Notes: generated by a model from the letters alone, not told the origin. Numbered from the stretch's first letter, positions 12,701 through 63,180 are shown. The stretch: DNA of 64,000 nt from Lama glama (GCA_028534125.1 CM052816.1:45572001-45636000), one strand, 5' to 3'. Translations and numbers: made by a program.

Positions 12701-15700
12701 AGGCCTCAATGATAATGACCGCCTCTGTTAACGCCCCTAGTTTGGCTCCTCCTGTTGTCTCATTAAGCAGTTGCACAAGAAAAGATTCTTCCAACTCAGG
12801 GTAGATGTCATTAATGATATATATTGGCACGGCTTTACTGGTTTCCCCTTCTAGCAAGACCACATCTGATGAAGCTATACTATAATCTTCACCTACAAAG
12901 ACAAAAAGCAAAATGCTAAGACTTATTTTAACATATGACAATAAACATCCCATATATGAGGGAAATACTATGACATACTACATTTCATGGACATACTTCA
13001 AAAGACTTTTTTGAAGATACTGACTAGAGTTATTCTAAACAATATTTTATCTCTCTTGCAAGAAAAAATAGGTTTGATACGACAAAAATAATGAAAAAGA
13101 CATCCTGAGTATTCAAGTTCATGCCTTCATTTCTTTTTTTTTAATATTTTTAATTTGTTTTAATTAATTTATTTTTATTGTAGTCAGTTACAAGGTGTCA
13201 ATTTCTGGTGTACAGCACAATGTCCCAGTCATGCATAGATACACATACATTTTCATATTTTCATTAAAGATTATCACAAGATACTGAACATAGTTCCCTG
13301 TGCTATACAGAAGAAATTTGAGGGGGTTTAAAGTCTGTTTTTATATATAGTCATGCCTTCATTTTTAGAAAGATGTTTACATAATCTGTTCTATCTGCTA
13401 CATACACATGTAAATGATACAAATATAGACACAGACACATAGACAAAGATACAGATATGCACAAAGTGTCATTCATTACCACAAAATGGCCCATTATCTA
13501 CAGAATTCTAAAAAAATGTATGCAATACTTTAAAAACAAAGAACAGAACTAGAATTCTGATCTCATTAAGGAGATAAATCACACTGTTGCACAGAGATGG
13601 GCCTGTTAGCATCATCAATCCTATTAACTGGAAACTACGGACTTTTCAACAAAGTTGGATTAAAAGCTGCTACTACACCACTCAGGGTGGTCTTGCCTCT
13701 GGCCAAACAGTGAAATGAAATGGAAAGAGGCATCTTAAGGAGCTTGGGGGCTAATTTCCTAAAACACAGTTCAATCCTCACCATCTATCAGTGTGTAAAG
13801 CCCCCTATAGATAGGTATTCCTCTGGGCTTCCAACCCCAAATGCATTTGCATGTGCGTGCACACACACACACACACACACACAACTTAGAGACTAGGTGA
13901 GTCTGGTTTATTGTGTTTTCAAGCAAGTATCATATGCAGATGATTTATTTCAAAAAACCAAGTATATTACCCCATCCATTCACACTTATGTCCTTTGAGT
14001 ACATACTAGAAAGATTCTAACTGAACAGCTCCTAGGCAAATCTCCCTCTACATACTGTAACTGCACCACCAAAGAAGGCAGTCTCCTAATGTTTGCATTA
14101 GGCAATGAAATCCTTCTGTTTAAAGGTAAAATAGTTAATGCTAATCATTACCTCTACCACATCCTTCATAAATAATCCAGATAAATGGGCTGAGAGACAC
14201 GACTGTTGCCAAGCACTGAAATCATGGCTGCACATTTTATCCTGCATTCCCTGGTATAGTTTACACATGAATTCCTTCCAAAAAAACTTGAAAGTACACA
14301 CAGAGAAAGCCTAACAATGCTTTAAATTTCACTGGTTTGTGCATATCCGGGTCATCATAGCTTTTAATTTGCCAACAGCTTTCACAAATTCTACAAAAAC
14401 AATGTCAAATATACAAAACAAAACTCTAGATTTGTGCCTTTAAAAAGATGCAAGAGTATTATTGTTTTCTGGTTGACTTCTCTAACTACATCTTTGAGTG
14501 GCTTTGTTAATCAAGGATATAATTTCCCTCTTAAACACTCCACTGCTCCTTAGCTGTCCTTTCTCACCAGCTATCGCAGTTACTGGCACGGCTTTAAACT
14601 TCACAGAAACATCTGCAAATGTTCCTCCTGTTCTAGTCACATTGATAATGGGTCCAACATGATTTTCTGCCACTCGAACCACTGGTACGGAGAGCTGAAG
14701 AATTCCAAACGCATCATCATTGGCAGTGATAATTAGATGAGCAATAGTTTCGACCTTGGGCCCAAGGCGTGGAGAATCTGGAACTGAAAGACAGAAGAAA
14801 AGCTAATACATCAAAATTCTAAGAACTGGCCAAAAGTCATCAAGAAGCCTCAGCAAGATCCAGAAGCCAAATGGGATCATCATTTTGTGCTTTCTCTCTA
14901 CTATTTACATTAAAAAATAGCCATCCATTTCTAAGAGCCAGCACTAATCTAGACACTAGGGGTACAGAAATAGATTAAAGAGAAAGTCTCAACTCTCTGG
15001 TAGCTTCTACGGAGATTTTTATCACAGAATCCTTAGCAAAAGATTATTTGTTTGTTTGTTTGTTTGTTTAAAACAAGTATTTATTACCCTACAAAGATAT
15101 TAAATTTTAATAAGCACTGAAAATTTGTCAAAAGGTAAAAAATGATTAGAGTAGAATTCGTCATCACTGCATAATATTACAATAGGTAATGATGAAACCT
15201 ACAAAATTATGCTCTTCTAATTAGTTACCAGCATGCTATAAATTTTTAAAACAGCATTTCAGTTTCAAAGGTGAGTAGGAAAGTAATTTAGTTCCTCAAA
15301 GGCCAGCTGCAAATCACCACACTCTAATTCGATCACTGCCTCTCCCTGCTTCAAGGCCCTCCCTCAATAACCTGCTCTCCCTGCCCGACTTGGGTTAAAA
15401 GTCACTCAGCTACCTTGTCCAGAAAGCAGAATGGGCTTCAGTGCGACCTCAACACTGCCAAAATAGAATGCGCTCCCTTAAGCTTGTGAGGGCATGCATT
15501 GAAGCCTGTGCAAGGAAAGTGGAGTCGGTCAAACTCCGCCGTCGAACGTCCAGAGCCCAGTGACGCAGCAATATTATACCGCATGCGCAGGCCCCATGTA
15601 TTGGTACGGAATCACTTGTGCTGCGCAAGCGCGGTGGATGGTCCACGTGGCTCACGTAGCTGGCTAGGCGCCGGCTTTGGCGGGCGGGACTTTCCACCTG

Positions 15701-18700
15701 CGCTGCCGCCACTGCAGCCTGTGTACTCTCCGCAATAAAGACACGTCAGAGGCACCTACGGCTCCGCCAGTGTTCCTCGCCCGCCAAGTCTGTGAACCAG
15801 CCAGGACTCGAGTACCTGCAACACAGCCTACTTTTAAGACTCCCTTCTTACTTTCCACTGATCTTAGAGAAAGCAGAACTTATTTTGAAGTCATTTCACA
15901 AGACCTTTCACAAACTCTCCCTGACTTATTCTCAAGACTCATTTCCAACCAGCACCCTTGTCAAAACAATATAAAAAGTAAACTTTCAACACAAATGAAG
16001 CATCAACAAACTCTTATTACAAGTACACAATTCTGAGTTCATATTTAGAACATCTCTAACAATGTTGGTATGTGGAAGTATGTGATAATGAATAAAATTT
16101 AACATTTTTCAGACAATTTAATCTAAATACAAGCAATGACACCATTTACTTTCAGTGATAGAGGCCCCGACTGTGCTAAATTATATCACAGTTAAAACCA
16201 TAAACTATAAATCAATATAACATAATTAAATTCAACTAAATTAGAAAAAAGGAGCAGCAACACAGAGCAAGCAGATGACATTTTGTGAGTGTGCACCATC
16301 TGACAGGCATTATTCTCAGTACTTTCTTGCATCAAGTCATTTGCTTCCCACAGCATCTCTATGTGGTAGGTAACACTGTCCACATTTCACAGATTAGGAA
16401 TCAGAGGCACAAAGGTGTTGATGAGGTCAGCTAAGGCATTATACTAGGACCTGGTGGACACAACTGAGATGCGTTCTGTAAGGGTTTGTCTAATCCTTGC
16501 TCCCAATATGCAATTCCTCATCAAACCAGGGATAAAGCCATCTATCCACGACTGCTCCTCCTGCCCCATGCCTGCTCATCACCAGTCTTCTCACACTGCT
16601 CTCCTGAAAGCTGGTGATGACAGAATACAGAGACCCTATCAGCCCTACACTGATTTGCCTTTTAAAGTGTGAAATGGTATCACCCAAATTTGCACGTAAT
16701 TTTTCTTTTTTTTTATTTTTAACATTGATTATTTTCTTTCTAATGCTTTTAATTGTTTTTTAATTATGTCACGTCATAGCTTATGCCTATTCTGAACTCC
16801 ACCAAGCATGCTGCCTGGTTCAAGAAACGTATCAAGCATAAAATACACATGGACTGTTTCTCCCATCCCACAGCGCATTGATATTCTGCATATACCACTT
16901 TATTAATAATACTTGTTCACATTTATTGAATGCTTACCACATGTAGGACACTGTTCATTTTCACACATAATTATCGTATTTAAGCCCCATTAATTCTGTA
17001 TTATAGATAAGGAAACTGGGGCTTTAAAAGTTTATGTGCAACAGCTTATGACTATACCTGTGAACATAAGTTATCTGACACCAGCACCCACAGCCCTCAG
17101 ACACTGCTCTATGTGATCCTCACTTTCAGTTTTATTTCTAGCTCACTCAGTAAACTGTGAGTTCCCTGAAAACTAGGCTATATTTTATGATTTTTTACTT
17201 AATAGGACTAATTACTGGGTTTTATTTCAATCTATTTATTATTATAACTGATCCTAAATCTTGCTAACAAAAAAATGGATGGGTTATTGTGTAAGAATTT
17301 TAATCTGGACTATAACCTGAAAATTTAATGTTAGCAATTGTCTTAAAAAGTAAATTTCCTTCTATAACCATGGACTACAATTACATTGAGGCAAGAACGT
17401 TACTCACTATACAATATATTCATCCAGCAGTTACAGTAAGGTGAAGAAATTTACTTGTAAGAAACCTTAATCTATATGGCAGAACACAGAACACATACAG
17501 ATCTTAAAATCTAACTCTTTGGACTATTTAATTCCAATTTCTTTAAGAAGGTTTTATTACATGTTCAATATATAAAACTCATTTAATATATTTTATTTAT
17601 AAATATTATCCTAAAACTGATATTAAATTGATATTAAATTAATATCACCAATCTTTTTTCCTTTTCTTGTCTCATTCCAGTAAATCTAAATTTTTCTCTT
17701 TATTTAAAAACTCCTTTCTAAAGTTCTATGTCTTCTTAGAGAGATGTGACTAATGAACAAACTATGGAGCAATCACTGCTTTCATTTTCACGAGCTCAGG
17801 CCCTGCTCTCTCCTATTAGCCCCCGAGTCTCTACAATGCTACTGGGCCACAACCCCAGTGGAAGTGGCTGCTACTTTCCCCATCCCTCATCCTTATCCCC
17901 AACCAGTGCCTTCTTCTCAGCTGTCACAGTGACCAACAAAATTTCCAGGACTTCTTACTACTGCATGGCCCTGGCCCCCTTCCTTTATCAGCTGCCAGAT
18001 CTAGTGCTCCTCACCCATAGAAAGAGACTGTTGGTTAAGGAATCTTCCAGAGTGGATTAGCACAAGAGAGACTCAGGATCTTGCTACCAGGACTGTCCTT
18101 GGAATCACCAGGTTGATTCCAGAATGTTTTGGAAGCTACGATATATAGTATATAGTACTAGAGGTCAGTGACACTGGATTACATAGACACTTCTAAAAAT
18201 TTAGTCTGGGAATGCAACAGACTTTTCAACATGATTTCATGTCTTCAACTGCCCCACTGCCATTTGCCTTATACATACACTTTAATAAGAGGATGCTTTC
18301 CAAGTTAGAGCTTACTATTTTTATGTAATTTTCTACCATACCAAATTCTTAATTTATTGTTTCAGGATTCTTACCCCTAATAATAATAGCAACACTAATG
18401 GTTACTTACTTGGGCGATTCTGTACTTTCTCTATTAAAGCAGAGTTGAGTAGTTCAATAAACAAAGACTCCGACCTTTCTGGTTCATCGTCATCCAAAAT
18501 TGAAATAGTTATTGTTGCCTCACTCTGATTGGCTCTGAAAAGAGCAAATCCAGAAGCTGGTATATAGTCTTTGCCTTGAGTTGCTCTGGCTAAATTAGGT
18601 GGAAAATAAGGCAGTTTTTCCATATCATCCAGTGTTGCATACGTGACCATGACTTTTCCCAGGAGGCCTTTTAACCTTACTATTAACAACGTGATGTTCT

Positions 18701-21700: not shown

Positions 21701-24700
21701 ACCCATTTGTGTTTTTTGGGTTTTGGGGGGTTTTTTAACTTTTTTTTATTGAGTTAAAGTCATTGTACAATGATGTGTCAAGTTCCAGTGTAGAGCACAA
21801 TTTTTCAGTTATACATGAAAATGCATATTTTTATTGTCACATTTTTTTCGCTGTGAGCTACCACAAGATCTTGTATATATTTCCCTGTGCTATACAGTAT
21901 AATCTCGTTTATCTATTCTACATACGCCTGTCAGTATCTACAAATTTTGAAATCCCAGTCTGTCCCTTCCCACCCGACCCATTTGTTTTTGTAAAGAAAA
22001 TCAGTATGATACATTATATACCAACATATAAATGTTCTATTTATCTCCTTCTCAGGTATTCAAAACTATGTAAAATGTTTTTCAATAATCACTTTTGTAA
22101 ATGATACCAAGCAAAATTTCTGTTACAATTGGGATCAGGAAACTGCATTAGATTCATACAAAGAAGAGTCTGGGCTTTGGAGGCAGGCAAGGACTTCATT
22201 CTGACTTGATCACTTTCTAGCTGGGTGACGATAACATGGAACAAATAATACTTCATAAAGTTGTTGTACTGGTTAATGAGATAAAATATATCACGGACCT
22301 TCACATAGTAGGTATCAATAAATGGTTAGTATCATTGTCTCTAAAAAGAAAAGTTAAAATGCAAAATAGTAAAGGACCTTGGAACAGCTGCTTACCATGT
22401 TTGTGAATAGTTGGAAGGAAGAATTCCATGTCCCCATCACCACTACCACTGCCATCAGCCCTAAAGAGATCAGTCCCTTCACAAGGAAAAATAGACAGAG
22501 ACACAACCCACACAACACACATTGACACAAAGAGAAAATTGAGAGCTCTTAAAACATATCCAGCAAAGAGCAAATACAGTAATATTCACCGAATGACATG
22601 CATTGTTCCATAAAAACCAGATTAAGTGGTGATAGTACAGTATTAGTCAAGTTACCAATTTAGGAAACTTTCATTCAGAGCTTCAGGAAATACTCCAGGT
22701 AGGCTGTAACTGGCATTTCCGATTTCTGCCAATTTATCTGGTTTTATTTTTAGATTTTCACTTATAACAATGTAAATTTTATTAACACTTTTAGTATTTT
22801 TGTGCATATAACAGCTTATACTCAGGCCTATACACATGTGACAGTCACCTTAACACTGACAACAACCAATGAAAACTTTGTTTCCCTCCAGCCACACATT
22901 TAAATCCCCACAATGTTTACCATTCTCAGATCTCATCACCCTTTTGCCACTGACATTTTGGAAAGAACCCTAGACAAGTAGTCTGAAAACCCTGCTTCAG
23001 CCCTGGCTGCAAGAGATACCAGCTATAAAACCTTCAGCACATCACTAAACCTCTTGGTGCCTCACTCTTCTCACCTATAAAAGGCGCTTGCTGCCTTGTA
23101 CAGAACTTCTCTAAAGATCAAATAAATAATAATGTAGAAAATTAAGTACCCTGGCAATACATAAAGACTATAATAAAGAGAAAGTGGTTTTAACTTCACT
23201 TCCAATACATCTCATATGCCAACCATTATTTCACCAAGCGTTTGCAAACAAAGAAGATAGGGAGGGCAGCAAAGGCCACAGTGGAAAAGAAGAGCTACGA
23301 GAAGAGAGACCACATCCACACCTTCTACGGGATCTCTGATTGACATGCTTGTTTAAGATCTGCCCTGCTCTCCCCTCAAAAGGACTGTGATACACCAGAC
23401 TTGAGAATTTGTGGCACCCAAAACCTGAAATTATCTTAGCGACTTACAAGAGGGAAAATGGATTTCAGGGACTGTCCAGTGCATGGCTTTGCTTCCATAT
23501 TAACCGCAAGTTATGAGAAAGAGAGGTGAGGTCTAACACCAAAGTGCTCTGGTTAGCATAAAACATCTACTCAGACTGCTGTCATATGTAAAATCAGTTT
23601 TATAGACACAACAGTGTGGAATAAGGGTTTCTCCCCTGACCCGCAAAAGAATTTAGCTCTACAAGCCATTTCACGTCTTAGGCAGGCCCAGCTATGACTC
23701 GAGGAGCAGAGGCCAGCGTCTGGATTCCTTTACCTCCAGTCCCCACTCAAGGTGGGCAGGATCAGATTCTCTGCCAGTATTGCCCACTTAAGAAACTGCA
23801 AAATTGGTTTTCAAATGAGCAGTCATGCCCAATTAACAATGCGTATTCTAGAGATATGGGAAGAAGTTTCTTCACAAAATCACAAGTATCACCATGATCA
23901 CAAATATCACTCTGGGACAATATTTGATGTTCCTTATTAATCAATAGTAGATACTGATCACTAACATGTTATTTATTACACAGGTATTTTTAGCTATAAG
24001 TGATACAAAGAACAACTTTTCATATATTTTATAGTGACCTTTGATTCATGAAATCTTGTCATGAAAATAATGATTTGGAGATGTGAGGACTTGTCTCCGG
24101 AAGACAAGCAAGGCTGGTTTTTTGACATGCCACCTGCCAGACAGGTTGTCCAGCATGTTTCTACTGTTTTATGCAGTCACCATACTGAGGTGCTATATAA
24201 TCACTTCTCTGGCTTGGCCTCCTTTTCCTTCTCCTGGGCTGTGGGAACACAGGGAAGGGAAATGTGGAGAAATTTTGCCGTGCTTACTCCAAAGTCTCAC
24301 TACATACCAGAAGACAGTGTTTCTGTCCTATCCAATTTCTCCCTCTGGATGGCTTATACAGTATTATGATTTTCTTCACCAAAACATGAAAATAATAATA
24401 AGATAACAATATCAGGTTTTGTAATGGAAGAGACTGCCCTAATGAATACCACACCAATGCTCAATTTCTTGTATTTATAAAGGCAGCATGGCACACATCT
24501 CATGTAGCACCTGATAATCAAACACAGTAATACTTCAGCAAAAATATATATATAATAGTTAACCTAAGAGTGATAAATAAATATTATAAATAACTATTCT
24601 TCAATGCAGGTGAGTTTTGCCACAAAACGGATTTTTGACTCCAAAAATCTTTGATAATCGAAGCTTTCTGAATATCAGAATTGAGGATAAGGTATTGTTA

Positions 24701-27700: not shown

Positions 27701-30700
27701 TAATGATTTTTTATAAATGCATAATACCTTTCAATTGCTTCTTTCTACTTTTAAAAGAAAAGTTACAACATGCAGCATGACCCATAAGGCCTAGAATGAT
27801 CTACGCCCTGCATACTTTATGTTTTATCATCACATCCAGCTTACCACATTCTAGAAACACTGGTCTTCTTTCAGTTCCTCTGACAGCCTGTGCTTTTCCG
27901 TACTTTAGGGCCATTTTACCATTTATTCATGCTATTTTACCAGTCTCAAGGAATTCTTCCCTACTTCATCTAGTCTGCTAGTTTCTCCTCCTTCAATTTC
28001 AGAACTCAGCCTAGATATCACTTTCCCAGAAAAGCCTTTCTTGACTACCCAGACTAAGTGAACACTCACCTTTCTCCAAGAATATCAACCTGAAAATTTC
28101 CTGTAACTGTGATTTAGTCATTACTTAGTTGTTTAATATCACTCTCAAGAGCTAGAAATGAACACCTGGTAGGTGAGGACCACCTCTTGGTATACAGAAT
28201 AAGGTTAAGAACAGTGATGTCTGATACTCAGCTGTCTCCTCTTCCATCTCTTCCATACATGATCACTCCTAGCATGTGTCCTCCCCTCTCCAGCATACCC
28301 ATACACACAGACTCACATATACAGCCTAAGAAATCTTATTCATGCTATCACAGATCACAGAGAGTGGAAGCATCATAGAGAAATGGTAAAGGCGAAAGCT
28401 ACCAGGGTTTCAGTGATAAGCAAAGACAATGGTTCAAAGAGGTAATAATTGTCAAACAAGACATTGAAGCACCCCTGAAAATTTTCAGCAATGTCCCCAA
28501 GGGTATTAGCTTTCTGATAGCCACAAAGAATAAGAACAAAGGTTTTGTTTCATTTTGTTTTAGTTATTAAAGAAAATGATAATCCAGCTGGATATGAGGG
28601 ATAACCATATATGACAAACCCACAGCTAACATCATACTCATACTCCATCAAAGGTGGAAAGCTGGAAGTATTTCCTCTAAGATTAGGAACATGACAAGGA
28701 GGCCCTCTCTTCACCACTTTTATTCAACATAGCTATGTTAAGTCTTACCCAGAGCAATCAAAGAAAAAGAAATAAAAAGAATACAAGTTGGAAAGGAAGA
28801 AGTAAAACTGTCACTGGTTGCAGGTGACATGACACACAAAAAAAACCTAAATAAGTCACCAGAGAACCACTAGAGCTCATCAATGCATTCGGTAAAGTTG
28901 CAGGATACAAAATTAATATACAGAAATCTGTTGCATTTCTATACACTAAAAACAAAGTATTAGAAAGAGAAACTAAGGAAACAATCCCATTTACCATCAC
29001 ATCAAAAAAAATAAGAAGAAGAAAACACCTAGGAATAAATCTACCTAAGGAGGCAAAAGACCTGTAATCCAAAAACTGTAAGACAATAATGAAAGACACT
29101 GAAGACAATACAAACATAAAAAGATATACTGTGCTCCTAGACTGGAAGAATCAATATTGTTAAAATGACCATATTACCCAAGGCAATATACAGATTCAGT
29201 GCAATCCCTATCAAAATACCAATGGCATTTTTCATAGAACTAGAACAATGTTAAAATTTATATAGAAACACAAAAATCCTCAAATAGCCAAAACAATCTT
29301 GATAAGGGAGAACAGTCATGCTCCCTGACTACAGACTATACTCCAAAGCTACAGTAGGGGACTAGCACAAAAACAGACACTTAGATCAATGGCACAGAGA
29401 GCCCAGAAATAAACCCACACACTTATGGTCAGTTAATCTACGACAAAGGAGGCAAGAATATAAATGGAGAAAAGACAGCCTCTTCAATAAGTGATGCTAG
29501 GAAAACTGGATAGTTACATGTAAAAGAAGCAAATTAGAACATTCTCTAACACTATACACAAAAATAAATTCAAAATGGATTAAAGACCTAAATGTAAGAC
29601 CAGATACTATAAACCCCCAGAGGAAAACATAGGCTGAACATTCTTTAACATAAATTGCAGCAGTTTTTTTTTTAATCTATCTCCTGAAGTAAAGGAAATA
29701 ATAGCAAAAATAAACAAATGGGACCTAATTAAATTTAAAAGCTTTGGTACAGCAAAGGAAACCATCAACAAAACAAAAAGACAACATACTGAATGGGAGA
29801 AAATAATTGCAAATGGTATGGTTAATAAAGGGATTAACATCCAACATACATAATTAGCTCATACATCTCAACATCAAAAAAACAGAAACTCAATTAAAAA
29901 ATGGGCAGAAGAACTGACTACACATTTCTCCAAAAAGAAAATGCAGATGGCCAACAGGCACAAGAAAAGATGCTCCACATTGCTAACCATCAGGAAAATG
30001 CAAATTAAAACCACAATGTGATACTACCACACGCTTGTCAGAATGGCTATCATCAAAAAGAGCAGAAATAACAAATGTTGGCGAGGATGTGGAGAAACGG
30101 GAACCCTTGTACACAGGAAATGTAAATTAGTGCAGCCACGGTGAAAAACAGTATGGAGGCTTAGCAAAAAACTAAAGATATAACTACCATATGATCTGCA
30201 ATTCCACTTCTGGGTATATATCCAAAACACACAAAAACTACTTTGGAAAGATACGTGCACCCCAATATTCATAGCAGCATTATTTACAATTGCCAAGAAA
30301 TGGAAGCAACCTAAGAGTCCATCAACAGATGAACAGATAAAGACAATATGGTGCATATATCTACCATGGAATACTACTCGGCCATTAAAAAGAATGAAAT
30401 TTTGCCATTTGCTGCAACATGAATGGACTTGGAGGTTATTAAGTTAAGTGAAGTAAGTCAGACAGAGAACGATAAATAACATACGATATCACTTAAATGT
30501 AGAATCTAAAAAACTACAACTAGTGAATCTAACAAAAAAGAAGCAGACTCACAGATACAGAGAACAAACTAGTGGTTACTGTTGAGACGGAGCAATACAG
30601 GGACTGAAGGAGTAGGAGGTACAAACTAATGGGTGTAAGATAGGTTCAAGGGTGTACTGTACAACATGGGGAATATAGTCAACATTTTATAATAATTGTA

Positions 30701-33700
30701 AATGGAAAGTAACCTTTAAAAATCGTATAAAAATTTTTAAATAGATGAAGGACCTGAATAGTTATTTCTCAAAAGAAGACATACAAATAGTCTACAGCTA
30801 TATGAAAAGACACAAATCATCACTAATTATCAGGGAAACGCAAATCAAAAGCACAATGAGACAGCACCTCACACCAGTCAGAATGGGTATTATTAAAAAG
30901 ACAAGAGATGACAAGTATTGGAAAGGATGTGGAGAAAAGAGTTTGAGAAAGGAGAAATCTGAGAAAATTTTTCTCACTGAAATTCAGCCAAAATTAATTG
31001 AATTCAATTAGCCAAGGTTTCTGGGCTTTAGGAGAAAAAATACAAATTACTGAACACTACACCTTTGTACAGTTCTTATTAGGAAGAAGAGGAAAAACAA
31101 GAAAAACTGAATTTAAAGAAAAAGATTCTTGGGGGGAGGGTATAGCTCAAGTGGTAGAGTGCATGCTTAGCATGCATGAGGTCCTGGGTTCAATCCCCAG
31201 TACCGCCTCTAAAATTAAATAAATCTAATTACCTCCCCCAAAATAAAATAATTAAGTAATACAATAATAAATAAATAAACATTTTTTTTAAAAAAGAAAG
31301 AGAAAGATTCTTTGGGAAAACAAATGTTGAAGGACATAAAATAATTCTTGAGAAGTGTAGCAGAGAAGAAATTATGAGCATTCATTTAATTTGAGTACTA
31401 GTTTTAATATGATGAGGTGACACTTGCTGAGTGTTACTGCATGTGTGCATGCACAGTACATGACATTTACAAAGCTGCCATCAATCCTCAGAGTGATCCT
31501 GCCCAGCAGATATTAGCTCTCTCTTACAGATAAGGAAACTGAGGTTGGGAAAGACTGAGTCTACCAAAACCACACATTTAAAAGACGACTTTAAACCCAG
31601 TTCTTTCCAGTTCCAAATCCCAGGCTTTTTTTTTTTTTTTTTTTTTTTGTCGGTATCATACTGGTTTTCACTTGAAGGGAAAACAAGTTAAAACTGAAAT
31701 GACATGGACATATAATTTTTTTACAATTATGGTTTTGCTTGATGGATACAGACAAAAGGATTTAAATTGTGTAAGAAACATAATTTTAAATATATCTGAT
31801 CAAAACCTGTAACATTAAAATAAATAATACAAACGAAGCCTATGACAAAAATTAGGTATAAGAGGAATCCGTAGGAGAGCTACTTAAGTGTCAGGCTTCA
31901 ATGGACTGAAATACTTTAATTTATGTAAATTTAAAGGCTGAAACGCCCTCAGTGCTTCTTTTCCTTGTGTAGCATGTTCTAGGTACAGTGCCAAGTCCCT
32001 TCCAGTCCTCCAAGAGGATTGTGTCTCTTTTACAAGTGTAAACACCACTTCAAAAGGATTAAGTGATTTACCTGGTAGTCCTCAGGACTGAATGCTGTCA
32101 ATGACACTGTTCTAAATTCCGCTGTAACCCTCCCCAGGAGTCCTTGTGCACGGATGACCAATAACCTGACTTCTCCATCCTCCTCCAGCACAGTGACGTG
32201 TGGAACACTGTTTGCAGGTAGCGTCATTGTGTCCTCAGGCTGGGGAGGCAGGTCTGTGGAGAACTGGAGCAAGCCTGGCCGATACAAAGAGAAGAGGGCA
32301 TTTTTGCCCCCGTTATCCGTGGAAGAATTTCCTACTCACTTGAAACAATCCTGCACAATTATTTTGATCACCGGGATAAAATTCTAAGGACTCTCATTTA
32401 GAAAAGACTTCAGTGAAGATTTGATTAACATGCGTTTGACATGGAATATGTTAGTAAGTTTTCAGGATGTTAAAAATTAAAATGGTAATTTTTCTTGTCT
32501 CTGTCCCAAGAAAGCTTTTTAAAATGGAAGCGTCAATAAAAAGAAAATGGATGACATTTAGAAATACATATTGTTAAACATTTACTTATATCTGAGTCTC
32601 CAGAATTCATTCTTTTTAAAAAATATTGTATTTATTTATCATCATATTATTTAATTATTTTTTATTTTGATGGGGGTCGGGGAGGTAATCAGGTTTATGT
32701 ATTTTTAGAGGAGGTACCAGGACCTCATATATGCTAAGCATGTGCTCTACCATTTGAGCTATGTCCTCCCCCGATTCTTAAACTAGAAGCAGAATAAAAT
32801 TAACACCACCCTGAAGGACTTGGCAACACACATTGTGAAAACTTAACTATGAAAATCATTATCTGAAGAACCTCTCAAGTTTCCTACACAGAGCTTTTAC
32901 TGGGTGTTCTTGCTTCATTCCTACAAAAGAACTATTACTTTTCAATGCAGAAAACAGTCTTGACTTATTAGGACAGACATCTATGATAGTTCCCCAATTA
33001 AGAAAATTATCACTTTCCAGCATAAGATAAAAAAGAAATTAATATAAACAGACAGTGATAACTCTACTTCTTGAAATTTAATAAAACATAAATTACAAAG
33101 TACTTCACTTAGGTGTTAACCTATCACAGAAGGATAATTTTTAAAATTAAAAAAAATGATATCCATGAATAAAAATACTCTTTTTTATTTAAAATAACCC
33201 TGCTTATACTTTTCAAAATATATTATTAAACTTTAGAAATGGCTCTTTACATTTTTTTCATAAACATTCCCTCAACAAGGCAGCTTAGAAGTTCAAGAGC
33301 CAGGAAGTTAGAGGGTCTGAAGGAGTTCTACTTCGATCACTTGCAAAAAGTCCCTTAAGTTCCTGAAAGGATCAAGTACACCCAGAGAAGGGAGGCTTAT
33401 TCTTGCAAAAGGGCGTGGTTACCATATGGATGATCACTAGCTTTGACGGTGATATCTGTCGTTTCCTTCTCAGGATCTATGCTTGCACCACTGGTGGGAG
33501 TAGAACCTAGTTTTCCATCTCCAGGAATTGCAGAAATCAGTGTCACACGAAAATATTCATTAAGTTCAGGAACATCATCATCAAGAACATAAATATTCAA
33601 GACCTATAAATACAAAACGCAGAGGCATTAAGCTATGAGGCATGTGGAAATTGTTTACCACCTACCAGAAGAAAACAAAACAGACAATTATTTCTCATTG

Positions 33701-57700: not shown

Positions 57701-60700
57701 AGAGGAAAACTGATTACACACTGAAAGTTTCAGATTGTTTAGTATTGCTTTATGTAGGACAAACATGGACCATTCAAATTAGAATGAGTCTTACTTTGTT
57801 TCTTAAGTTTTTTTTTTTAATTTTCCAAACATACATACTTCTCAACCCTTTCTTGCCCTCTTCCTTCCCTATATCTCCTTGCCAATCTTCAAAATATTTA
57901 TATCTATAATATACTAGGTACTATCAACTTTCCACAAAACACAAGGGAAAAATAAAATCCCGTACCTCTGGTATCCCATCCAATCTTGTTAGCAAGGTGA
58001 TTATGATCTCCCTTTCCCCAGGTTTAAATTCTAGTACCCCCATGTTTCCGTAGAATTCATTGCTGTTTCTTGGCTCTACTCGGTAGCGTAGAAACTGCTT
58101 AACCAGAGCACCCCTGGAGCGGATGATGTGGAGCTCCACAGAATCTCCTTCCTTAAAAAAAATACACCAAAGTTCAAATTCTTCAAGACTGTTCTAAAGT
58201 TGTGAGTACAAACAGATTGAAGTCTCTCTCATACGTACTTTTATAACATAGGGACCTCTGAAAGCAGGAGAAAACTCAAAAATTCCCCCAGGATCGTCAT
58301 TTTCCAAAATAATTAGGTCACGGCTGGTGTATCCAGATTTCAGCACTTGGTTTTCCACATTGACCCTGAAGAAGTCAGAAGGAAAAAAGGCACCAGCTAC
58401 CTATAGTTTTCTGAATTCTGAAGCCTTATTTACAATATTTATAACACCTCCAGATAATGAATATGAAAGTTGTGAGGAGTTGAAACTTTAACTGAATTTA
58501 AGTGTATTAAAACCACTGAAGATCAAAACAGTTTTACTCACAACATTTATGGAAGAACTACTATATCTGAATTCATTGTATCTTTTATATTTGACTGAAA
58601 CCAAACAGTACATACGTAGATCAAAAATACAATAATCCAAGATTTCAATATATTTTATAAAGTAGCATCAAATTTATAGATCTATTTCCAGTTTTAAAAA
58701 ATTTTAATTTGAAACATGTAGTTTAAAAATATATTTAAATAAAAAATTTTTAACTTTGCATACACTTGAATTTCTTTTAAAAACTCATTACATGAGATTA
58801 CACTAACTGAATAAAAGTTGGAAAACTGCTTGGACTAACAATGACTGAAAATAAACAAAATTGTGACTAGATTTTAGAAATATTTTGTAATCTTTAATAT
58901 GATTCTATTCACCTTGATTTTAACTGCATGCATATAAAAGAAAATGCGGGACATACACAGACAGAAAAAAAAAATGGAAAAGAATGGACTTGAGACACAT
59001 GACCTGCTATAGCAACTCCCATAAACATCTCAAAAGAACATATTAAAACAAGATGTTTTTGTATTTCTGGTTTTTATGTTCAGTGTATAATTAGAATGAT
59101 CAAAGGGACTGGGACTGTAAGGCTCTGAGGGTTTAAAAGCCAGCATACTCTGAGAATTCTCAATCCTGAAAGCTGCTCTAAACCTTTCCAAATGTCACTT
59201 TCTATTGAATCAAGAAGTACCCCTGGTCAGACCTCAAAACTACAATGTAGCCACAATTAATATGTAGAAAGAACAGCACACATCCTGTGTAATAAAGAAT
59301 CTGAATTAACACCCTTCCCCAGCTTTTAGAATTCCAATAATCAATACCTAACACACTAGTGGCCACAGAAGTTATAGTCCAAGTAATAAGATGGTTATCT
59401 TTTTTACATACAACTGCAATCATATGATTTTCATAGCAAGTTTGCCCATATTTTATTTACAACCATATTTTCATTAACTAAAATGTCCTATGTCCATATA
59501 AACTAGGAGACAAAACAGGATCAAAATGTGAAATATAAAAATCCATTCTGAGCATTAAACTAATGAATTTGTTGTTAAAATTTCTTAAAATAAGCCACCC
59601 TTTTGAAAAAAAGCATATTTTTAGTAAGTTCTTTATACAAAAACTGAGAGAATATAGACAAGAAATTGCTTAGATGAACTCAAAAACCAATGGAAAAGAT
59701 GAGAGCACTGGTTCTGAATTCTCTGTTAAGCTACAAAATTGATAAAAGACATTAAGAATCTCACAAGCAAAGTACACTAATTGTTATCTTGCTTATATGT
59801 ACACTATAATGAAAGTTCAAACTTTTTAGTTCTTCAAAACATGTAATTACATAAATTCTGAAAAATTTTATCAAATACTTAAATGTATTCATAATTTAAA
59901 GCTCTTAATACAAAAAACCCTTCAGATAAGCTACCCTTATCATTAGAAAATAAAAGGATACAAAAAAGCATGCACAGGCAGGTGGACAAGCAAAATTAAT
60001 CAAGACCAGTGGGCATGCAGAAAGGCAGCCTTGTCCAAAACAATGGCTTGCAAAGCAAAATGTTGGATCATCAAAAACAAGGCACTCTTTAGGACACTTA
60101 CCCAAAATACACGACAAACCTTTCGGTTTCTACCCTGTCAACAGAGAAAGAAGTATGGGAGGGGGGGAAGAGGCAGAGACACTATTCGCCAAAATCTCAC
60201 CAATACTGCTGGAAAGTGAATGGCAGGGTAAAAATAAAGCTAAAGAAAGCCTTCCCCACCCCCAACCCCCTACGAGCTAGTCATGTTCACTTTAAGGGAA
60301 CTCTGCACACTGGGTTCTTTGCTATTGACAAATGCTAGCAAGAGGTTTGGCAGTTCCCACTTAGGGAAGATGACCCCATGGCTAGCCAGCATGTCAAGCC
60401 CCGTTGCAGACATTCCTTTCCAGGCCTGCCTCAAGGCGCTGGAGCCTGCCAAGCACTGTGCAGGCTTACAAAACCGCAGCAGCTGAGCAAATTTCATTCA
60501 GCCCGACTTATAATTACTTAGCAGCTTTAATTAGGTTTCAAAAAAATAAAAAACCTACATCCTCAGATCTAAAGCCAGTTATTCTTTGAAAAACTAAAAC
60601 CTCTATCAACAGAGAAACATACATCTTTCATCGTTTGTGTACGAATATACTCAAGAAGCCAAATATCATGGTATCTTTTAATTATGACAAATCTTACTTA

Positions 60701-63180
60701 AATATAACTTTATATCAGGAAATTCAAGCACTTTTCCAAATTCGCACTGTGTTGCATTTTCAAGTAGCCTCGAGAAATACATCAGCATGTATAGTTCTAG
60801 TACTTCATTTCTAAAGTCAAATAATACTATAAATAAGGAGTTATTCTCTACATACATACATCACAAATTTTTCTGAAATAAATTGGCATCGTGAAATTGT
60901 TTCTGATCTGGGAAAAATGAAACAAAAATATTTTTAACTAGTATGGCATCATAAACTGTTTCGTACCAGGGCAACTTTTAGCTATATTTAATTGAAATAC
61001 AGGGAATTTTCATTCGAATTTGACATTAAAAGAAAAATGTACATGGTACCACAATAAAGTGTTAATTTTTTATTGTTGCAATATTTTACTGTTACTTTTG
61101 TTAATCACACTAGCATTCATTCATCCGTTCCTTTAGTTTTGTTAAAAATTTGCAAAATTGAGATGGAGTTTTTATAAAATATGTTATTTTAAACCATACA
61201 TTTGATTCTCACATTTATTTAATTAAACATGCCTTAGAACACTTTAATGTAATTTGTTCAGGCACAACTGAGATAATCCAAGTTTGCACTAGTTACTAAT
61301 TGAACTGAAACATTTTAGTATAAATTTGAACTAATTTCCTCTATTTGAAAAGAGAGGAACCGATAATTTCTGAAATTCTCTACCCCATGGTTTGTACTTG
61401 TGTACAGCTTTTACCCATAGTAAAGAAAGAGAAATTAAAAACACTTAAAAATTATATTTAGTTAATTTCAAAGGTTTACATAAGGTTAAAAAATGATTAT
61501 TTTGAAAGAATAAGAATAGTCATTACGAACTTGCAGAGGTATAATTTAAATCATTCTTTAAACATTTAGTTCAGAACAGAAACTCTCAGCTGAGCAACAA
61601 AGTTTCTATAGATTGCTGTATTTTTGGTTTATAATTGCTGTTCCTTTTTCTTAAGTTTTTTTAATATTGCCCATTGATTTATTAAGTACTCTAATCTAAT
61701 TTAAAGGAAAAAATCATATAAGTGAAAAAATAATAATTTTCAGTTTATCTTACATTGTATTTCACAAATTTTTTCAACACATGAAATATTTTTTCTTAAG
61801 ATTTAATGCAAAATATATATTAAAACCGTAAGTCATTTAAACTGTATGTGTGTGTCGTATTTGGGTTTTGCTTTTTGATTTTTTGCCTGTTTTGTTGTTG
61901 TTGTGCTTTGTTTTAATTTTTATGTTGAAAAAAGGAAGAAAACACAATGTGGTTCTGAAAGAAAACAAAACAAACAGCAGACATTCAACAGATTTGTTCC
62001 CTACATTCTGTATTTTTCTTTCACATAAAAATAAAAACTACTTATAAGGTTTATAAAATGTGTTTACACAATACACCTTTATAGAAAAACCTGCAAGAGT
62101 AAAATCTGGAGAGGACCGGGAGTTATAAAACAGAATTATTACTACTTCCATCCTAATTAATATGATACAAAATAGCACCTATTAAATTCATCTACGAATT
62201 TTACCATTTCTAAAGTAAGAGTTCTGCAGAGCCCTCAAGTCACACTGACCTTTACTAATACGTATCTGTAGTAGACAATCTTGGTTTCGATTTTTTAAAT
62301 TAATTAATATCAATTAAACACAGTATTTTTTTCATTTTTGGAAAGAATTCTCTGAATTATTGAAAAAATTTCTCTTTGAGAGACTGTGATATTTTCTCAA
62401 TATAAATTACCTACTGAGAAATGTTAAGTAAATCCTTATTATTACTTAAAAATACCCCTTAAGTTTGCATTATTTTTCATTCTCTGGAAAGTAAGTATTA
62501 TTTAATGTTTAAATTCCATGTAAAGCGCGAATTTCATTATATGAAGATTAACGCTTTCTTTCTACTCACACAAAAAAGCTCTAATCCTCTCCCCTGTTGA
62601 AAATGAAACCAGCAGAGCTGTTTGCCTAACCTAACATTTTAGATTTTTTGCTGCCTACTTTTTGAATATAGCAAAATATAAGCTATGGTTAAGATTTATC
62701 TAATACCTTCCATAAATTCTCTATGTAATGTTTCTTCACAATAAATACCAGGTTAAAGTTAACTATGTCATAATATTCACGGTCTAACCAGAAGCCATCA
62801 ACAAACAGCAGAAAAGTCAGAAGGTCAACGTAACATTACCTACTTAGTTTTTTGTTTTTACTTTATATGGAAGAAAGAATTAAGACAAAAAAGAAAATTA
62901 TTTAAGAGAACTTGAAGACATAAACATCACTAAACATTACCTAAATGGGCTATTACCTGTCTAAAGAAAGTGTTACCGTCTCATTCATTTCTGGAATGTC
63001 ATCAGCTTTGACAGTAATGTTGATTGTTGTGTTACTTTGCCCAGATAAAAACACAACAGAGCCATTAAAGGGTCCTATGTCGTCCAGGGTCACTGCTTTC
63101 GAATTAAAGCCAGAGGGCTTCAAACTCCAATGGACAGTAGCCTGCCCATCAGTTCCATCCCGATGTAAGGGAATGCATAT
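6522..63180 (-). CDS. ADGRV1: ADGRV1 (VLGR1/GPR98) internal portion: 24 exons, 6139 coding nt, Calx-beta repeats + LamG/pentraxin domain; incomplete at both ends
   Basis: Minus-strand ORF fragments carry repeated Calx-beta signatures (DDxxPExxExFxVxL, I.ANDDPxGxxxF) and peptides recognisable as ADGRV1 (e.g. [32 protein letters not shown]). All 24 exons are bounded by AG/GT and join in phase. Confidence 0.98.
8552..8593. repeat. 14-bp unit x3 tandem repeat (tatcagtctacata)
   Basis: Two identical copies and a third with one substitution. Confidence 0.9.
8753..9564 (-). CDS. ADGRV1: ADGRV1 exon (~33), 812 nt: [15 protein letters not shown]...ILTFAE
   Basis: gttttag|C acceptor, AAG|gtgagt donor; matches ORF 8745..9539. 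Confidence 0.96.
10360..10541 (-). CDS. ADGRV1: ADGRV1 exon (~32), 182 nt: [13 protein letters not shown]...NITVRR
   Basis: tttttag|GTT acceptor, AG|gtatat donor. Confidence 0.95.
11740..11984 (-). CDS. ADGRV1: ADGRV1 exon (~31), 245 nt: (G)[12 protein letters not shown]...DDVPEIEE
   Basis: ctttag|GT acceptor, GAG|gtgaga donor; internal alternative donor at 11823. Confidence 0.95.
12187..12473. mobile_element. Short hAT-Charlie-type non-autonomous element
   Basis: Starts cagaaatcataaactcagatgcccgcaggggtcaggca, internal gatgttgccagat, degenerate inverted end. Confidence 0.5.
12677..12892 (-). CDS. ADGRV1: ADGRV1 exon (~30), 216 nt: (G)[11 protein letters not shown]...DDPYGLF
   Basis: tttgtag|GT acceptor, TTG|gtaatg donor. 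Confidence 0.95.
13133..13350 (-). mobile_element. 5'-truncated L1 3' end with poly(A)
   Basis: Poly-T on + strand, L1 3'UTR motif (tagttccctgtgctatacag), perfect 14-bp TSD tcatgccttcattt (13119-13132 / 13351-13364). Confidence 0.85.
13860..13882. repeat. (CA)n microsatellite
   Basis: About 11 CA units. Confidence 0.9.
14568..14783 (-). CDS. ADGRV1: ADGRV1 exon (~29), 216 nt: (I)[12 protein letters not shown]...PVTAIA
   Basis: ctttcag|TT acceptor, CTG|gtgaga donor. Confidence 0.95.
15047..15069. repeat. (TTTG)n microsatellite
   Basis: About 5-6 units. Confidence 0.85.
15485..15823 (+). mobile_element. CpG-rich element, probable young ERV solo LTR (5' boundary uncertain, 15416-15507)
   Basis: ~27 CpGs in ~330 bp in an otherwise CpG-poor window; AATAAA at 15734-15739; ends TGCAACA; flanks look like a split L2 remnant; no clean TSD found. 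Confidence 0.55.
16900..17110 (-). mobile_element. MIR SINE
   Basis: acatttattgaatgcttacc ... atagataaggaaactggggct. Confidence 0.6.
18410..19019 (-). CDS. ADGRV1: ADGRV1 exon (~28), 610 nt: [11 protein letters not shown]...EKVQNRP
   Basis: attttaaag|ATC acceptor, CAA|gtaagt donor; spans parts of two Calx-beta units. Confidence 0.95.
20005..20310 (+). mobile_element. MaLR LTR fragment (MLT1-type)
   Basis: ggtcatgtgacttgatttgacc...catgagtgaaaaatcaatctctgttgcagtaagccaatgagattttgg resembles MLT1 LTRs. Confidence 0.7.
20566..20705 (-). CDS. ADGRV1: ADGRV1 exon (~27), 140 nt: (A)[16 protein letters not shown]...STVVLN
   Basis: catgcag|CC acceptor, AAT|gtgagt donor. Confidence 0.95.
21711..21975 (-). 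mobile_element. 5'-truncated L1 3' end
   Basis: Same L1 3'UTR motif (ttccctgtgctatacag), T-rich tail, 11-bp TSD gacccatttgt (21700-21710 / 21976-21986). Confidence 0.85.
22160..22330 (+). mobile_element. MIR SINE, internally deleted
   Basis: tgggctttggaggcaggc...cactttctagctgggtgac...cacatagtaggtatcaataaatgg. Confidence 0.6.
22396..22476 (-). CDS. ADGRV1: ADGRV1 exon (~26), 81 nt, phase 1-1: (G)[26 protein letters not shown]
   Basis: tttttccttgtgaag|GG acceptor, ATG|gtaagc donor. Confidence 0.9.
22970..23150 (+). mobile_element. MIR SINE
   Basis: catcactaaacctcttggtgcctcactcttctcacctataaaa. Confidence 0.55.
25065..25194 (-). CDS. ADGRV1: ADGRV1 exon (~25), 130 nt: [43 protein letters not shown]
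   Basis: tttcag|AGT acceptor, GAG|gtaaga donor; not in the ORF track, translated by hand. Confidence 0.95.
26182..27315 (+). mobile_element. Tigger1 (TcMar-Tigger) DNA transposon, 3' half, degenerate transposase
   Basis: Peptides [11 protein letters not shown]...[11 protein letters not shown] and [22 protein letters not shown] match the Tigger/pogo DDE transposase; ends tatctctgaggtctgattg|ta, resembling the Tigger1 terminal repeat plus TA. Confidence 0.88.
27460..28170 (+). mobile_element. L2 LINE fragment
   Basis: Pyrimidine-rich L2 motifs (tagtccaag...atcacctcttgc, tactggtct...tgcatcc, tcactttcccagaaaagccttt). Confidence 0.7.
28606..30737 (+). mobile_element. LINE-1 fragment: degenerate ORF2 (RT to C-terminus) and 3'UTR
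   Basis: Typical L1 ORF2 sequence (tatgacaaacccacagctaacatcatactca, agaatcaatattgttaaaatg, atggattaaagacctaaatgtaagacc) with stops and indels; antisense ORFs 28758..30356 derive from it. Confidence 0.93.
30738..30940 (+). mobile_element. Second, diverged L1 ORF2 C-terminal fragment
   Basis: Peptide [13 protein letters not shown]...[28 protein letters not shown] is L1 ORF2; homologous to 29896-30100. Confidence 0.85.
31131..31296 (+). mobile_element. tRNA-Ala(AGC)-derived SINE, vic-1-like (camelid)
   Basis: Head GGGGAGGGTATAGCTCAAGTGGTAGAG...GGTTCAATCCCCAGTACC with A and B boxes, AT-rich tail, 16-bp TSD with one mismatch (31115-31130 / 31297-31312). Confidence 0.9.
31420..31625 (-). mobile_element. 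MIR SINE
   Basis: ttacagataaggaaactgagg core on the antisense strand. Confidence 0.6.
31626..31648. repeat. Poly-T tract
   Basis: 23 consecutive T. Confidence 0.9.
32072..32274 (-). CDS. ADGRV1: ADGRV1 exon (~24), 203 nt: (G)[14 protein letters not shown]...SPEDYQ
   Basis: cggccag|GC acceptor, CAG|gtaaat donor. Confidence 0.95.
32615..32772 (-). mobile_element. Second vic-1-like SINE with B-box deletion
   Basis: Reverse-complement match to the 31131 copy (gctaagcatgtgctctaccatttgagcta...ccccc) but lacking the ~13-nt tggggattgaacc segment. Confidence 0.85.
33423..33603 (-). CDS. ADGRV1: ADGRV1 exon (~23), 181 nt: [13 protein letters not shown]...ASDHPY
   Basis: tttatag|GTC acceptor, ATG|gtaacc donor. 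Confidence 0.95.
34380..34930 (-). mobile_element. L2 LINE fragment
   Basis: Purine-rich antisense L2 motifs (aggctggagtgggag, ctgaactaatgcagtgacaatggagatg). Confidence 0.6.
37134..37310 (-). CDS. ADGRV1: ADGRV1 exon (~22), 177 nt: [17 protein letters not shown]...PWQRSE
   Basis: tttcag|ATT acceptor, GAG|gtaaac donor. Confidence 0.95.
40649..42041. mobile_element. hAT-Charlie DNA transposon, Charlie1a-like (~1.4 kb)
   Basis: Degenerate terminal inverted repeats (caccagttctcaaa ... tttgagaatgactt), subterminal motifs and length recalled for Charlie1a, TA-centred 8-bp flanks. Confidence 0.75.
42700..43150 (-). mobile_element. L2 LINE 3' fragment
   Basis: atttattgagtaacttctatgt...ctaggtgccagagata and tttggagctgagacttgaatga motifs. 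Confidence 0.6.
44556..44929 (-). CDS. ADGRV1: ADGRV1 exon (~21), 374 nt: end of LamG (LRIGAG...[11 protein letters not shown]) and Calx-beta
   Basis: tttcag|GT acceptor, GAG|gtaggt donor. Confidence 0.96.
45655..45968 (+). mobile_element. Ancient L1 (L1M) 3' end fragment
   Basis: atgtggatgaatctcataaac ... tcttgatctgg ... aataaaa pattern. Confidence 0.6.
47109..47852 (-). CDS. ADGRV1: ADGRV1 exon (~20), 744 nt: Calx-beta part plus most of the LamG/pentraxin domain
   Basis: tactacag|GT acceptor, ATG|gtgagt donor; ALYFSG...FTFSAWV...WLHL...FYLDG is a LamG/pentraxin pattern. Confidence 0.96.
48382..48599 (-). CDS. ADGRV1: ADGRV1 exon (~19), 218 nt: [13 protein letters not shown]...LKLVNIS
   Basis: ttacatag|G acceptor, CAG|gtgctg donor. 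Confidence 0.93.
49248..49374 (-). CDS. ADGRV1: ADGRV1 exon (~18), 127 nt: (G)[41 protein letters not shown](W)
   Basis: atttag|GT acceptor, TG|gtaagc donor; not in the ORF track, translated by hand. Confidence 0.95.
50146..50168. repeat. (AC)n microsatellite
   Basis: About 11 AC units. Confidence 0.9.
51320..52750 (+). mobile_element. Ancient L1 3' region (L1MC-type)
   Basis: Motifs aaaactagaatgaaccctgtg, aggaaccagggctccttg, gacattctacaaaataact, aatgttaacttcctgatttt recalled from L1MC 3' ends. Confidence 0.7.
53347..53613 (-). CDS. ADGRV1: ADGRV1 exon (~17), 267 nt: (E)[11 protein letters not shown]...IILFNST
   Basis: atttcag|AA acceptor, CAG|gtaaat donor; Calx-beta repeat. Confidence 0.95.
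54592..54715 (-). CDS. ADGRV1: ADGRV1 exon (~16), 124 nt: [13 protein letters not shown]...NDDPIYFA
   Basis: ttttccaaaag|ATT acceptor, CAG|gtggta donor. Confidence 0.93.
54934..55213 (-). mobile_element. 5'-truncated L1 3' end
   Basis: Closely similar to the 13133 copy; TSD ccaaacagctactttatttt (54914-54933 / 55214-55233). Confidence 0.85.
56083..56246 (-). CDS. ADGRV1: ADGRV1 exon (~15), 164 nt: (A)[12 protein letters not shown]...YSLPDE
   Basis: tttcacag|CT acceptor, GAG|gtaaat donor. Confidence 0.95.
56964..57144 (-). CDS. ADGRV1: ADGRV1 exon (~14), 181 nt: [11 protein letters not shown]...KGDDTYR
   Basis: tttttag|TTG acceptor, G|gtaatt donor. Confidence 0.95.
57966..58151 (-). CDS. ADGRV1: ADGRV1 exon (~13), 186 nt: [14 protein letters not shown]...LDGIPE
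   Basis: ttttaag|GAA acceptor, GAG|gtacg donor; preceded by an 87-nt intron. Confidence 0.95.
58239..58365 (-). CDS. ADGRV1: ADGRV1 exon (~12), 127 nt: [42 protein letters not shown]
   Basis: ttcag|G acceptor, AAA|gtacgt donor; not in the ORF track, translated by hand. Confidence 0.95.
60102..60134 (-). CDS. ADGRV1: Candidate 33-nt alternative microexon of ADGRV1 (adds [11 protein letters not shown])
   Basis: ~45-nt pyrimidine tract ending ttgacag|, GG|gtaagt donor, frame-preserving in the phase-2 intron, no stop, two downstream TGCATG. Confidence 0.55.
62957..63180 (-). CDS. ADGRV1: ADGRV1 exon (~11), 224 nt: [20 protein letters not shown]...[16 protein letters not shown](R)
   Basis: Acceptor tttttatgag|ATA, donor AG|gtaata; open Calx-beta frame, ends in phase 2. 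Confidence 0.9.

Follow-up and report, generated by a model that had tools for sequence, protein, structure and literature searches.

A segment of 33 nucleotides (nt) within an intron of the llama ADGRV1 gene is, in our judgement, very probably a genuine and very old coding exon that is included alternatively in the transcript. ADGRV1 (VLGR1/GPR98), a very large adhesion receptor, is the product of the Usher syndrome 2C gene. The segment lies on the minus strand of the window, by which we mean the whole stretch of 64,000 nt of Lama glama DNA that was analysed. In the protein models compared here, the 11-residue peptide that it encodes is kept from frog to placental mammals, with two conservative changes in teleosts, and shows higher conservation than the constitutive exons beside it. 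Inclusion of the exon would place this peptide at the beginning of the F-G loop of a Calx-beta domain, directly after strand F, and skipping would give the canonical protein.

Host gene

The stop-to-stop frames of the minus strand of the window encode Calx-beta and laminin-G-like sequence. A full-length ADGRV1 protein (P0087) can be mapped exon by exon across the window from residue 665 to residue 2724; the window opens inside the gene, near residue 665. The ADGRV1 exons of the window are 84–87% identical to those of bats, aye-aye, galago, sloth and elephant shrew, 82% to those of night monkey, 81% to those of tenrec, 79% to those of two marsupials and 75% to a platypus model.

Anatomy of the exon and its splice sites

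The features of the exon and its surroundings are listed in Table 1. On the minus strand, the region reads tctctgcctcttccccccctcccatacttctttctctgttgacag/GGTAGAAACCGAAAGGTTTGTCGTGTATTTTGG/gtaagt, where slashes mark splice boundaries and the exon, in capitals, runs from 60134 down to 60102; with its immediate splice-site bases it is cag/GGTAGAAACCGAAAGGTTTGTCGTGTATTTTGG/gtaagt. The acceptor is CAG/G with an AG-exclusion zone of 45 nt, and the donor is GG/GTAAGT. Pyrimidines occupy 36 of the 41 positions from -45 to -5 and 13 of the 16 positions from -20 to -5. The segment thus has an AG acceptor with a pyrimidine tract and a GT donor, as canonical exons do, and the same sites are present in a fish-like contig, L002, described below.

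Table 1 Features of the candidate exon and its surroundings, in window coordinates
Feature	Position	Strand	Basis
Candidate 33-nt cassette microexon of ADGRV1	60102..60134	-	sequence; peptide shared across species; orthologue in contig L002
3' splice region: CAG acceptor (AG at 60136-60135) and pyrimidine-rich tract with UCUU/CUCU motifs	60135..60181	-	
5' splice site GTAAGT of the microexon; GTAAGTG common to the fish-like contig L002	60096..60101	-	
Upstream constitutive exon, 224 nt, ICIPLHRDG...NETVTLSLD + AG	62957..63180	-	
Downstream constitutive exon, 127 nt, G + 42 residues	58239..58365	-	sequence and protein alignments
UGCAUG, RBFOX-type motif, +83 from the donor	60014..60019	-	
Second UGCAUG, +128 from the donor	59969..59974	-	

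The upstream exon ends with TTA GAC AG/ (TLSLD + AG) at 62957, and G GTC AAT GTG GAA AAC CAA opens the downstream exon at 58365. These junction sequences place both introns flanking the segment in phase 2. The first base of the segment finishes an arginine codon (AG/G), ten whole codons follow, and the final GG forms a codon with the G that opens the next exon, so that inclusion amounts to 11 extra residues. Skipping produces R-VNVENQ, and inclusion produces the 11 residues between this arginine and VNVENQ with no stop codon and with the remainder of the protein unchanged. The exon is therefore symmetric: its length is a multiple of three, it is flanked by phase 2 on both sides, and the reading frame is kept either way. 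It contains two CpG dinucleotides, compared with 31 in the 4591 nt of the host intron (observed/expected ratio, 0.29); the Poisson probability of at least two in 33 nt is about 0.02. All of this agrees with what a sequence-only reading of the window had claimed, namely 33 nt enclosed between a CAG acceptor preceded by about 45 nt of AG-free pyrimidine tract and a GTAAGT donor, a host intron in phase 2 whose additional exon introduces neither a stop nor a frameshift, and two CpGs in a CpG-poor intron.

The insert in protein models of other species

Three protein searches provided 143 ADGRV1 models. The first two covered proteins of at most 2000 and at most 5000 residues, and full-length proteins came from the third alone, which drew on the best 120 of 398 matches. 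Because the query of the third search was a bird protein, its listed matches are mostly avian; mammals are under-sampled. The end of the upstream exon was placed in each model by BLASTP and the residues that follow were inspected. Four models (P0008, P0012, P0014 and P0015) are truncated or wrongly spliced at this point and hence uninformative, leaving 139. Among the matches listed, 26 of these 139 carry an insert of 11 residues exactly at the junction, and 113 pass directly from LDR to the next exon. Microexons are frequently overlooked by gene annotation, and the 113 models are therefore no measure of how often the exon is used.

The insert-bearing models come, among the matches listed, from 18 named species, ranging from a teleost to placental mammals, and from one cluster without a species name. 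They include black rhinoceros (P0002), elephant shrew (P0087), bilby (P0127), gecko (P0007), túngara frog (P0097), large yellow croaker (P0018) and 13 bird species. The peptide is identical to that of the window in 24 of the 26, which comprise the rhinoceros, elephant shrew, bilby, gecko and frog, twelve of the bird species and the unnamed cluster. The swallow insert, VETERFIVYFG, differs by V>I, and the croaker insert, VETARFIVYFG, by E>A and V>I. The upstream exon of the insert-bearing proteins has an identity of 61–96% to that of the window. The constancy of the peptide from frog to mammals, under stronger constraint than its constitutive neighbours, argues that this optional exon almost certainly has a function.

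Both forms are modelled within the same crow species. Of nine crow isoforms aligned with MAFFT, six contain the 11 residues and the other three do not, and the exon is thus modelled as optional. Insert-bearing database isoforms include X9 and X10 of Corvus moneduloides, X8 of Corvus cornix, X2 of Coturnix japonica, X2 of Macrotis lagotis, X3 of Engystomops pustulosus and a model of Rhynchocyon petersi. They share with the window the same 11 residues at the same junction, with skipped isoforms alongside, but they are database models of other species. Some of them may lean on protein homology, and the 26 models are thus not 26 independent observations of splicing. Each of them is nevertheless, at the level of sequence, an independent observation that the DNA of the species still encodes the peptide with usable splice sites.

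A constitutive exon, always included and missing from the canonical cDNA and most annotations by oversight, is an improbable alternative. Gene predictors often overlook microexons, and several species are represented by a with-insert model alone (e.g. P0087, P0106 and P0054). However, the crow species have separate isoforms with and without the insert, and the insert is absent from the human fragment P0001 and from the zebrafish Swiss-Prot entry P0067. Furthermore, a study of adult human neural retina that covers ADGRV1 exons 3–77 at about 818 long reads reports nothing at this junction in its available text (PMC12047242).

An orthologous exon in a metagenomic contig

A metagenome search with a degenerate pattern made of the peptide and the splice-site bases returned one contig, L002 (positions 1–1367; 1.4 kb), which is an unannotated part of a fish-like ADGRV1 gene and presumably represents host DNA in an animal-associated sample. 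Its exon reads ctcccctgcag/GGTGGAGACTGCACGCTTTATAGTGTACTTTGG/gtaagtg, and the next ADGRV1 exon follows 759 nt downstream. Nine of the 33 nt differ from the exon of the window; six of these differences fall in five synonymous codons, and the other three produce two conservative amino-acid changes (E>A and V>I). The intron flanks, compared without gaps, agree at 16 positions out of 60 on one side and 19 out of 60 on the other, which is the random level. The length of the exon, its frame, the CAG and the GTAAGT are all retained. Differences that are mostly synonymous, together with the retained length, frame and splice sites, point to selection on a translated exon rather than on a nucleotide element. 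As a side remark, metagenomic contigs such as L002 can serve as stray vertebrate orthologues where a collection of vertebrate genomes is not at hand.

The comparison with L002 also bears on whether the segment is a conserved non-coding element, a regulator of splicing or transcription that gene predictors have mistranslated. Deeply conserved intronic islands do exist, but nine changes in 33 nt, mostly synonymous, with the peptide, the length and both splice sites kept, make this explanation very improbable. The inference of a cassette exon drawn earlier from the llama DNA is supported: 26 of the 139 models carry the insert, crows have both forms, and the models and L002 together reveal an orthologous exon with synonymous-biased substitution.

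Chance level of the pattern

The chance level was estimated with thresholds chosen post hoc near the values of the candidate: a YAG acceptor with at least 12 pyrimidines in 16 positions and at least 30 nt free of AG, and a GTRAGT donor, 3–60 nt apart. The minus strand of the window has 68 such acceptors and 36 such donors, giving 68 × 36 × 58/64000 = 2.2 expected pairs; one was observed, the candidate itself. On the plus strand, 1.4 pairs were expected and none was observed with the same thresholds. With a factor of 1/3 for frame and of about 0.43 for 11 codons being free of stops at the composition of the window, chance should yield about 0.3 open, in-frame pairs on each strand of the window. 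Taken by itself, the sequence pattern therefore does not exceed chance, and it is the cross-species evidence that decides. A pseudo-exon, whose acceptor and donor lie 33 nt apart by accident and are never used, would suit the counts expected on each strand, roughly two pairs of which about 0.3 keep the frame and have no stop, but it has a negligible probability and is excluded by the coding-type conservation of L002, where length, frame, CAG and GTAAGT persist amid randomised flanks and differences are mostly synonymous, and it leaves the same insert at the same junction in the 18 named species among the matches listed, from teleost to placental, without explanation.

A repeat origin was considered as well. 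A search of the 2.35-Gb genome with the 251 nt that surround the exon found no second copy, so the exon is not obviously derived from a repeat.

Position in the Calx-beta domain and predicted structure

Searched against the Pfam Calx-beta profile (PF03160), the rhinoceros protein P0002 scores 189.5 bits over eight stretches. By itself, the upstream exon reaches 20.2 bits, which is under the cut-off of 27, and its residues 33–74 correspond to profile positions 54–95 of 119. Because the exon ends at profile position 95, the insert falls at about position 96, after strand F. The upstream exon thus encodes the Calx-beta strands up to F, and the downstream exon encodes the remaining F-G loop, strand G and the linker.

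AlphaFold models were built for two segments, one from P0087 (167 residues, with the insert) and one from P0116 (156 residues, without it). The alignment behind both has 25 rows, 12 of them drawn from the 26 with-insert proteins and 13 from the 113 that lack the insert. The P0116 model has a mean pLDDT of 82.0, with strand F at residues 99–108, strand G at 121–127 and a loop pLDDT of about 86. The P0087 model has a mean pLDDT of 75.9, with strand F at residues 99–110, extending into the V-E-T of the insert, and strand G at 132–138. Residues 113–122, which belong to the insert, have a pLDDT below 50, and the model therefore does not give the conformation of the insert itself. The top Foldseek matches are 3gin, 2dpk, 2qvm and 3fq4, with a target-normalised TM score of about 0.8; the modelled fold is that of CBD1 and CBD2 of NCX1 and of the Calx-beta domain of integrin beta4. 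In these predicted structures, the insert lengthens the F-G loop and the beta-sandwich stays intact.

The ERFVVYF stretch of the insert fits the motif E.F.[VIL].[LFIVM], which has 22 matches in P0087. One is the microexon itself; the other 21 recur at roughly the spacing of the repeats, consistent with their being F strands. The F strand of the host repeat itself, ETVTLSL, lacks the Phe of the motif. Because the peptide bears E-x-F-x-V-x-F, the signature of Calx-beta F strands, it may add a strand or replace one.

Regulatory motifs

Microexons are defined strictly as exons of 3–27 nt or, more widely, of up to 51 nt. At 33 nt, the exon fits the wide limit and exceeds the strict one. Two UGCAUG elements lie in the window within the range of about 300 nt downstream in which (U)GCAUG is expected for RBFOX-type regulation. 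In a post hoc look, 0.14% of 135-nt windows of the minus strand contained at least two UGCAUG. The two elements hint that RBFOX proteins enhance inclusion in neurons or sensory cells. In L002, UGCAUG was not found within 700 nt downstream of the exon, the sole one being at +746.

SRRM4-type targets typically have UGC close upstream of the 3' splice site. Near the acceptor of the llama exon no UGC was found, the only one within 90 nt upstream being at -41, and an SRRM4-type signature was therefore rejected for the window. The acceptor of L002, ctgcag, contains UGC at -5 to -3. The lack of UGC near the llama acceptor, together with the lack of UGCAUG near the L002 exon, makes any guess at the regulation a weak one. 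We consider that inclusion is probably regulated by cell type, with RBFOX proteins as candidate enhancers acting through the two downstream elements.

Sequencing runs were also sampled by words. Four RNA-seq runs (X9–X12) hold 0.10–0.14 of the sampled words, approximately the exon share of a 10-kb stretch. The word shares of runs X1–X8 and X13 fit low-coverage DNA.

Relation to published splicing systems

The comparisons in this section draw on the available portions of the papers cited. No description of a microexon at this junction was found in the searched literature on the splicing of ADGRV1/Gpr98/Vlgr1, and no paper matching the 11-residue peptide itself was found there. The exon is not mentioned in the available text of PMC10018040, PMC7917623, PMC6667449 or a 2026 review of ADGRV1 (PMC13729602). 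In the microexon supplements of two further papers, covering 12 files out of 18 for PMC9303857 and all 12 for PMC12626424, ADGRV1/GPR98 was not found. This, like the lack of a report from the human retina long reads, counts against the cassette-exon reading.

A close parallel is found in ADGRV1 itself. The retina long-read study describes a new in-frame exon of 33 bp, exon 39A in intron 39, in about half of the human retina long reads (PMC12047242). Exon 39A and the microexon share the gene, the length and the preservation of frame, but exon 39A is located in another intron, beyond the window and roughly 2200 residues later in the protein. A second optional mini-insert, VTELIRYRLK, is seen in birds at about residue 2942 of crow ADGRV1 (P0037), also outside the window. 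Within another Calx-beta repeat, it follows the F-strand signature EFFLVNL...SSLPRL and precedes the G strand DVEGLASQIIIDAN, and it has weaker relatives in frogs, a gar and a stickleback, being far less conserved than the peptide of the microexon. This bird insert is probably the counterpart of human exon 39A.

A precedent for splicing at the same place in the fold is provided by NCX1 and Drosophila CALX. The cassette exons C–F of NCX1 (SLC8A1) and the five-residue splice segment of CALX1.1/1.2 lie in the FG loop of CBD2, which adjoins the inter-domain linker and the Ca2+ sites of CBD1, and splicing there tunes Ca2+ affinity and the rigidity of the linker (PMC9820601). NCX1/CALX and ADGRV1 thus have in common two successive Calx-beta domains, the latter of which takes up a cassette sequence in its F-G loop. 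However, the Calx-beta domains of NCX1/CALX are cytosolic regulators of an ion exchanger, and the likeness to the ADGRV1 insert is one of loop position. By this analogy, inclusion of the exon would probably tune the Ca2+-dependent rigidity, or a binding surface, locally within the long ectodomain.

The vertebrate programme of neuronal and sensory microexons is driven by SRRM3 and SRRM4 (PMC12626424, PMC9303857). The ADGRV1 exon resembles its members in being short, in frame, symmetric and highly conserved and in affecting a surface loop of a folded domain. It differs from them in exceeding the 27-nt limit and in having no UGC near the 3' splice site in the window.

Significance

The sequence-only reading had described the exon as hidden and had left it undecided whether predicted isoforms already include it. 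They do in other species, as the 26 models attest, and the exon is therefore already present in public databases; the word hidden holds for the canonical models and fails for the predicted isoforms of other species. The exon is not a new kind of thing: database isoforms contain it, and the literature searched does not describe it.

If the human ear, eye or brain uses the exon, diagnostic pipelines based on the canonical 90-exon transcript may miss a piece of coding sequence. A comparable 33-bp exon of ADGRV1 was treated as new as late as 2025, according to the available text of the long-read study (PMC12047242). The location in the same loop as the NCX1 splicing that tunes Ca2+ sensing (PMC9820601, available portions) leads to a concrete testable hypothesis. 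A more extended reading would make the insert a cell-type-specific switch in neurons or in sensory hair and photoreceptor cells, placed under RBFOX-type control, which gives an F-strand signature to a repeat whose own strand lacks the Phe, remodels Ca2+-dependent stiffness or a ligand surface, and is a coding exon missed in variant screening for Usher 2C and epilepsy, as exon 39A was until 2025; taken as a whole, this reading is speculative and rather unlikely.

Other features of the window

A small exon on the minus strand at 22400-22471 corresponds to residues 1818–1841 of P0087 and matches a block of 27 residues that is missing from one of the nine crow isoforms (P0071). It is modelled in the databases as another cassette exon of ADGRV1. 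At about 28700-31000, long open frames occur on both strands, e.g. at 30024-30443 on the minus strand; we take these frames to resemble LINE-1 ORF2-type sequence, and they probably belong to an old intronic retrotransposon. At about 15400-16050, a patch richer in G+C (0.416 in the 14–16 kb bin) with overlapping long open frames on both strands is possibly a SINE or another repeat.
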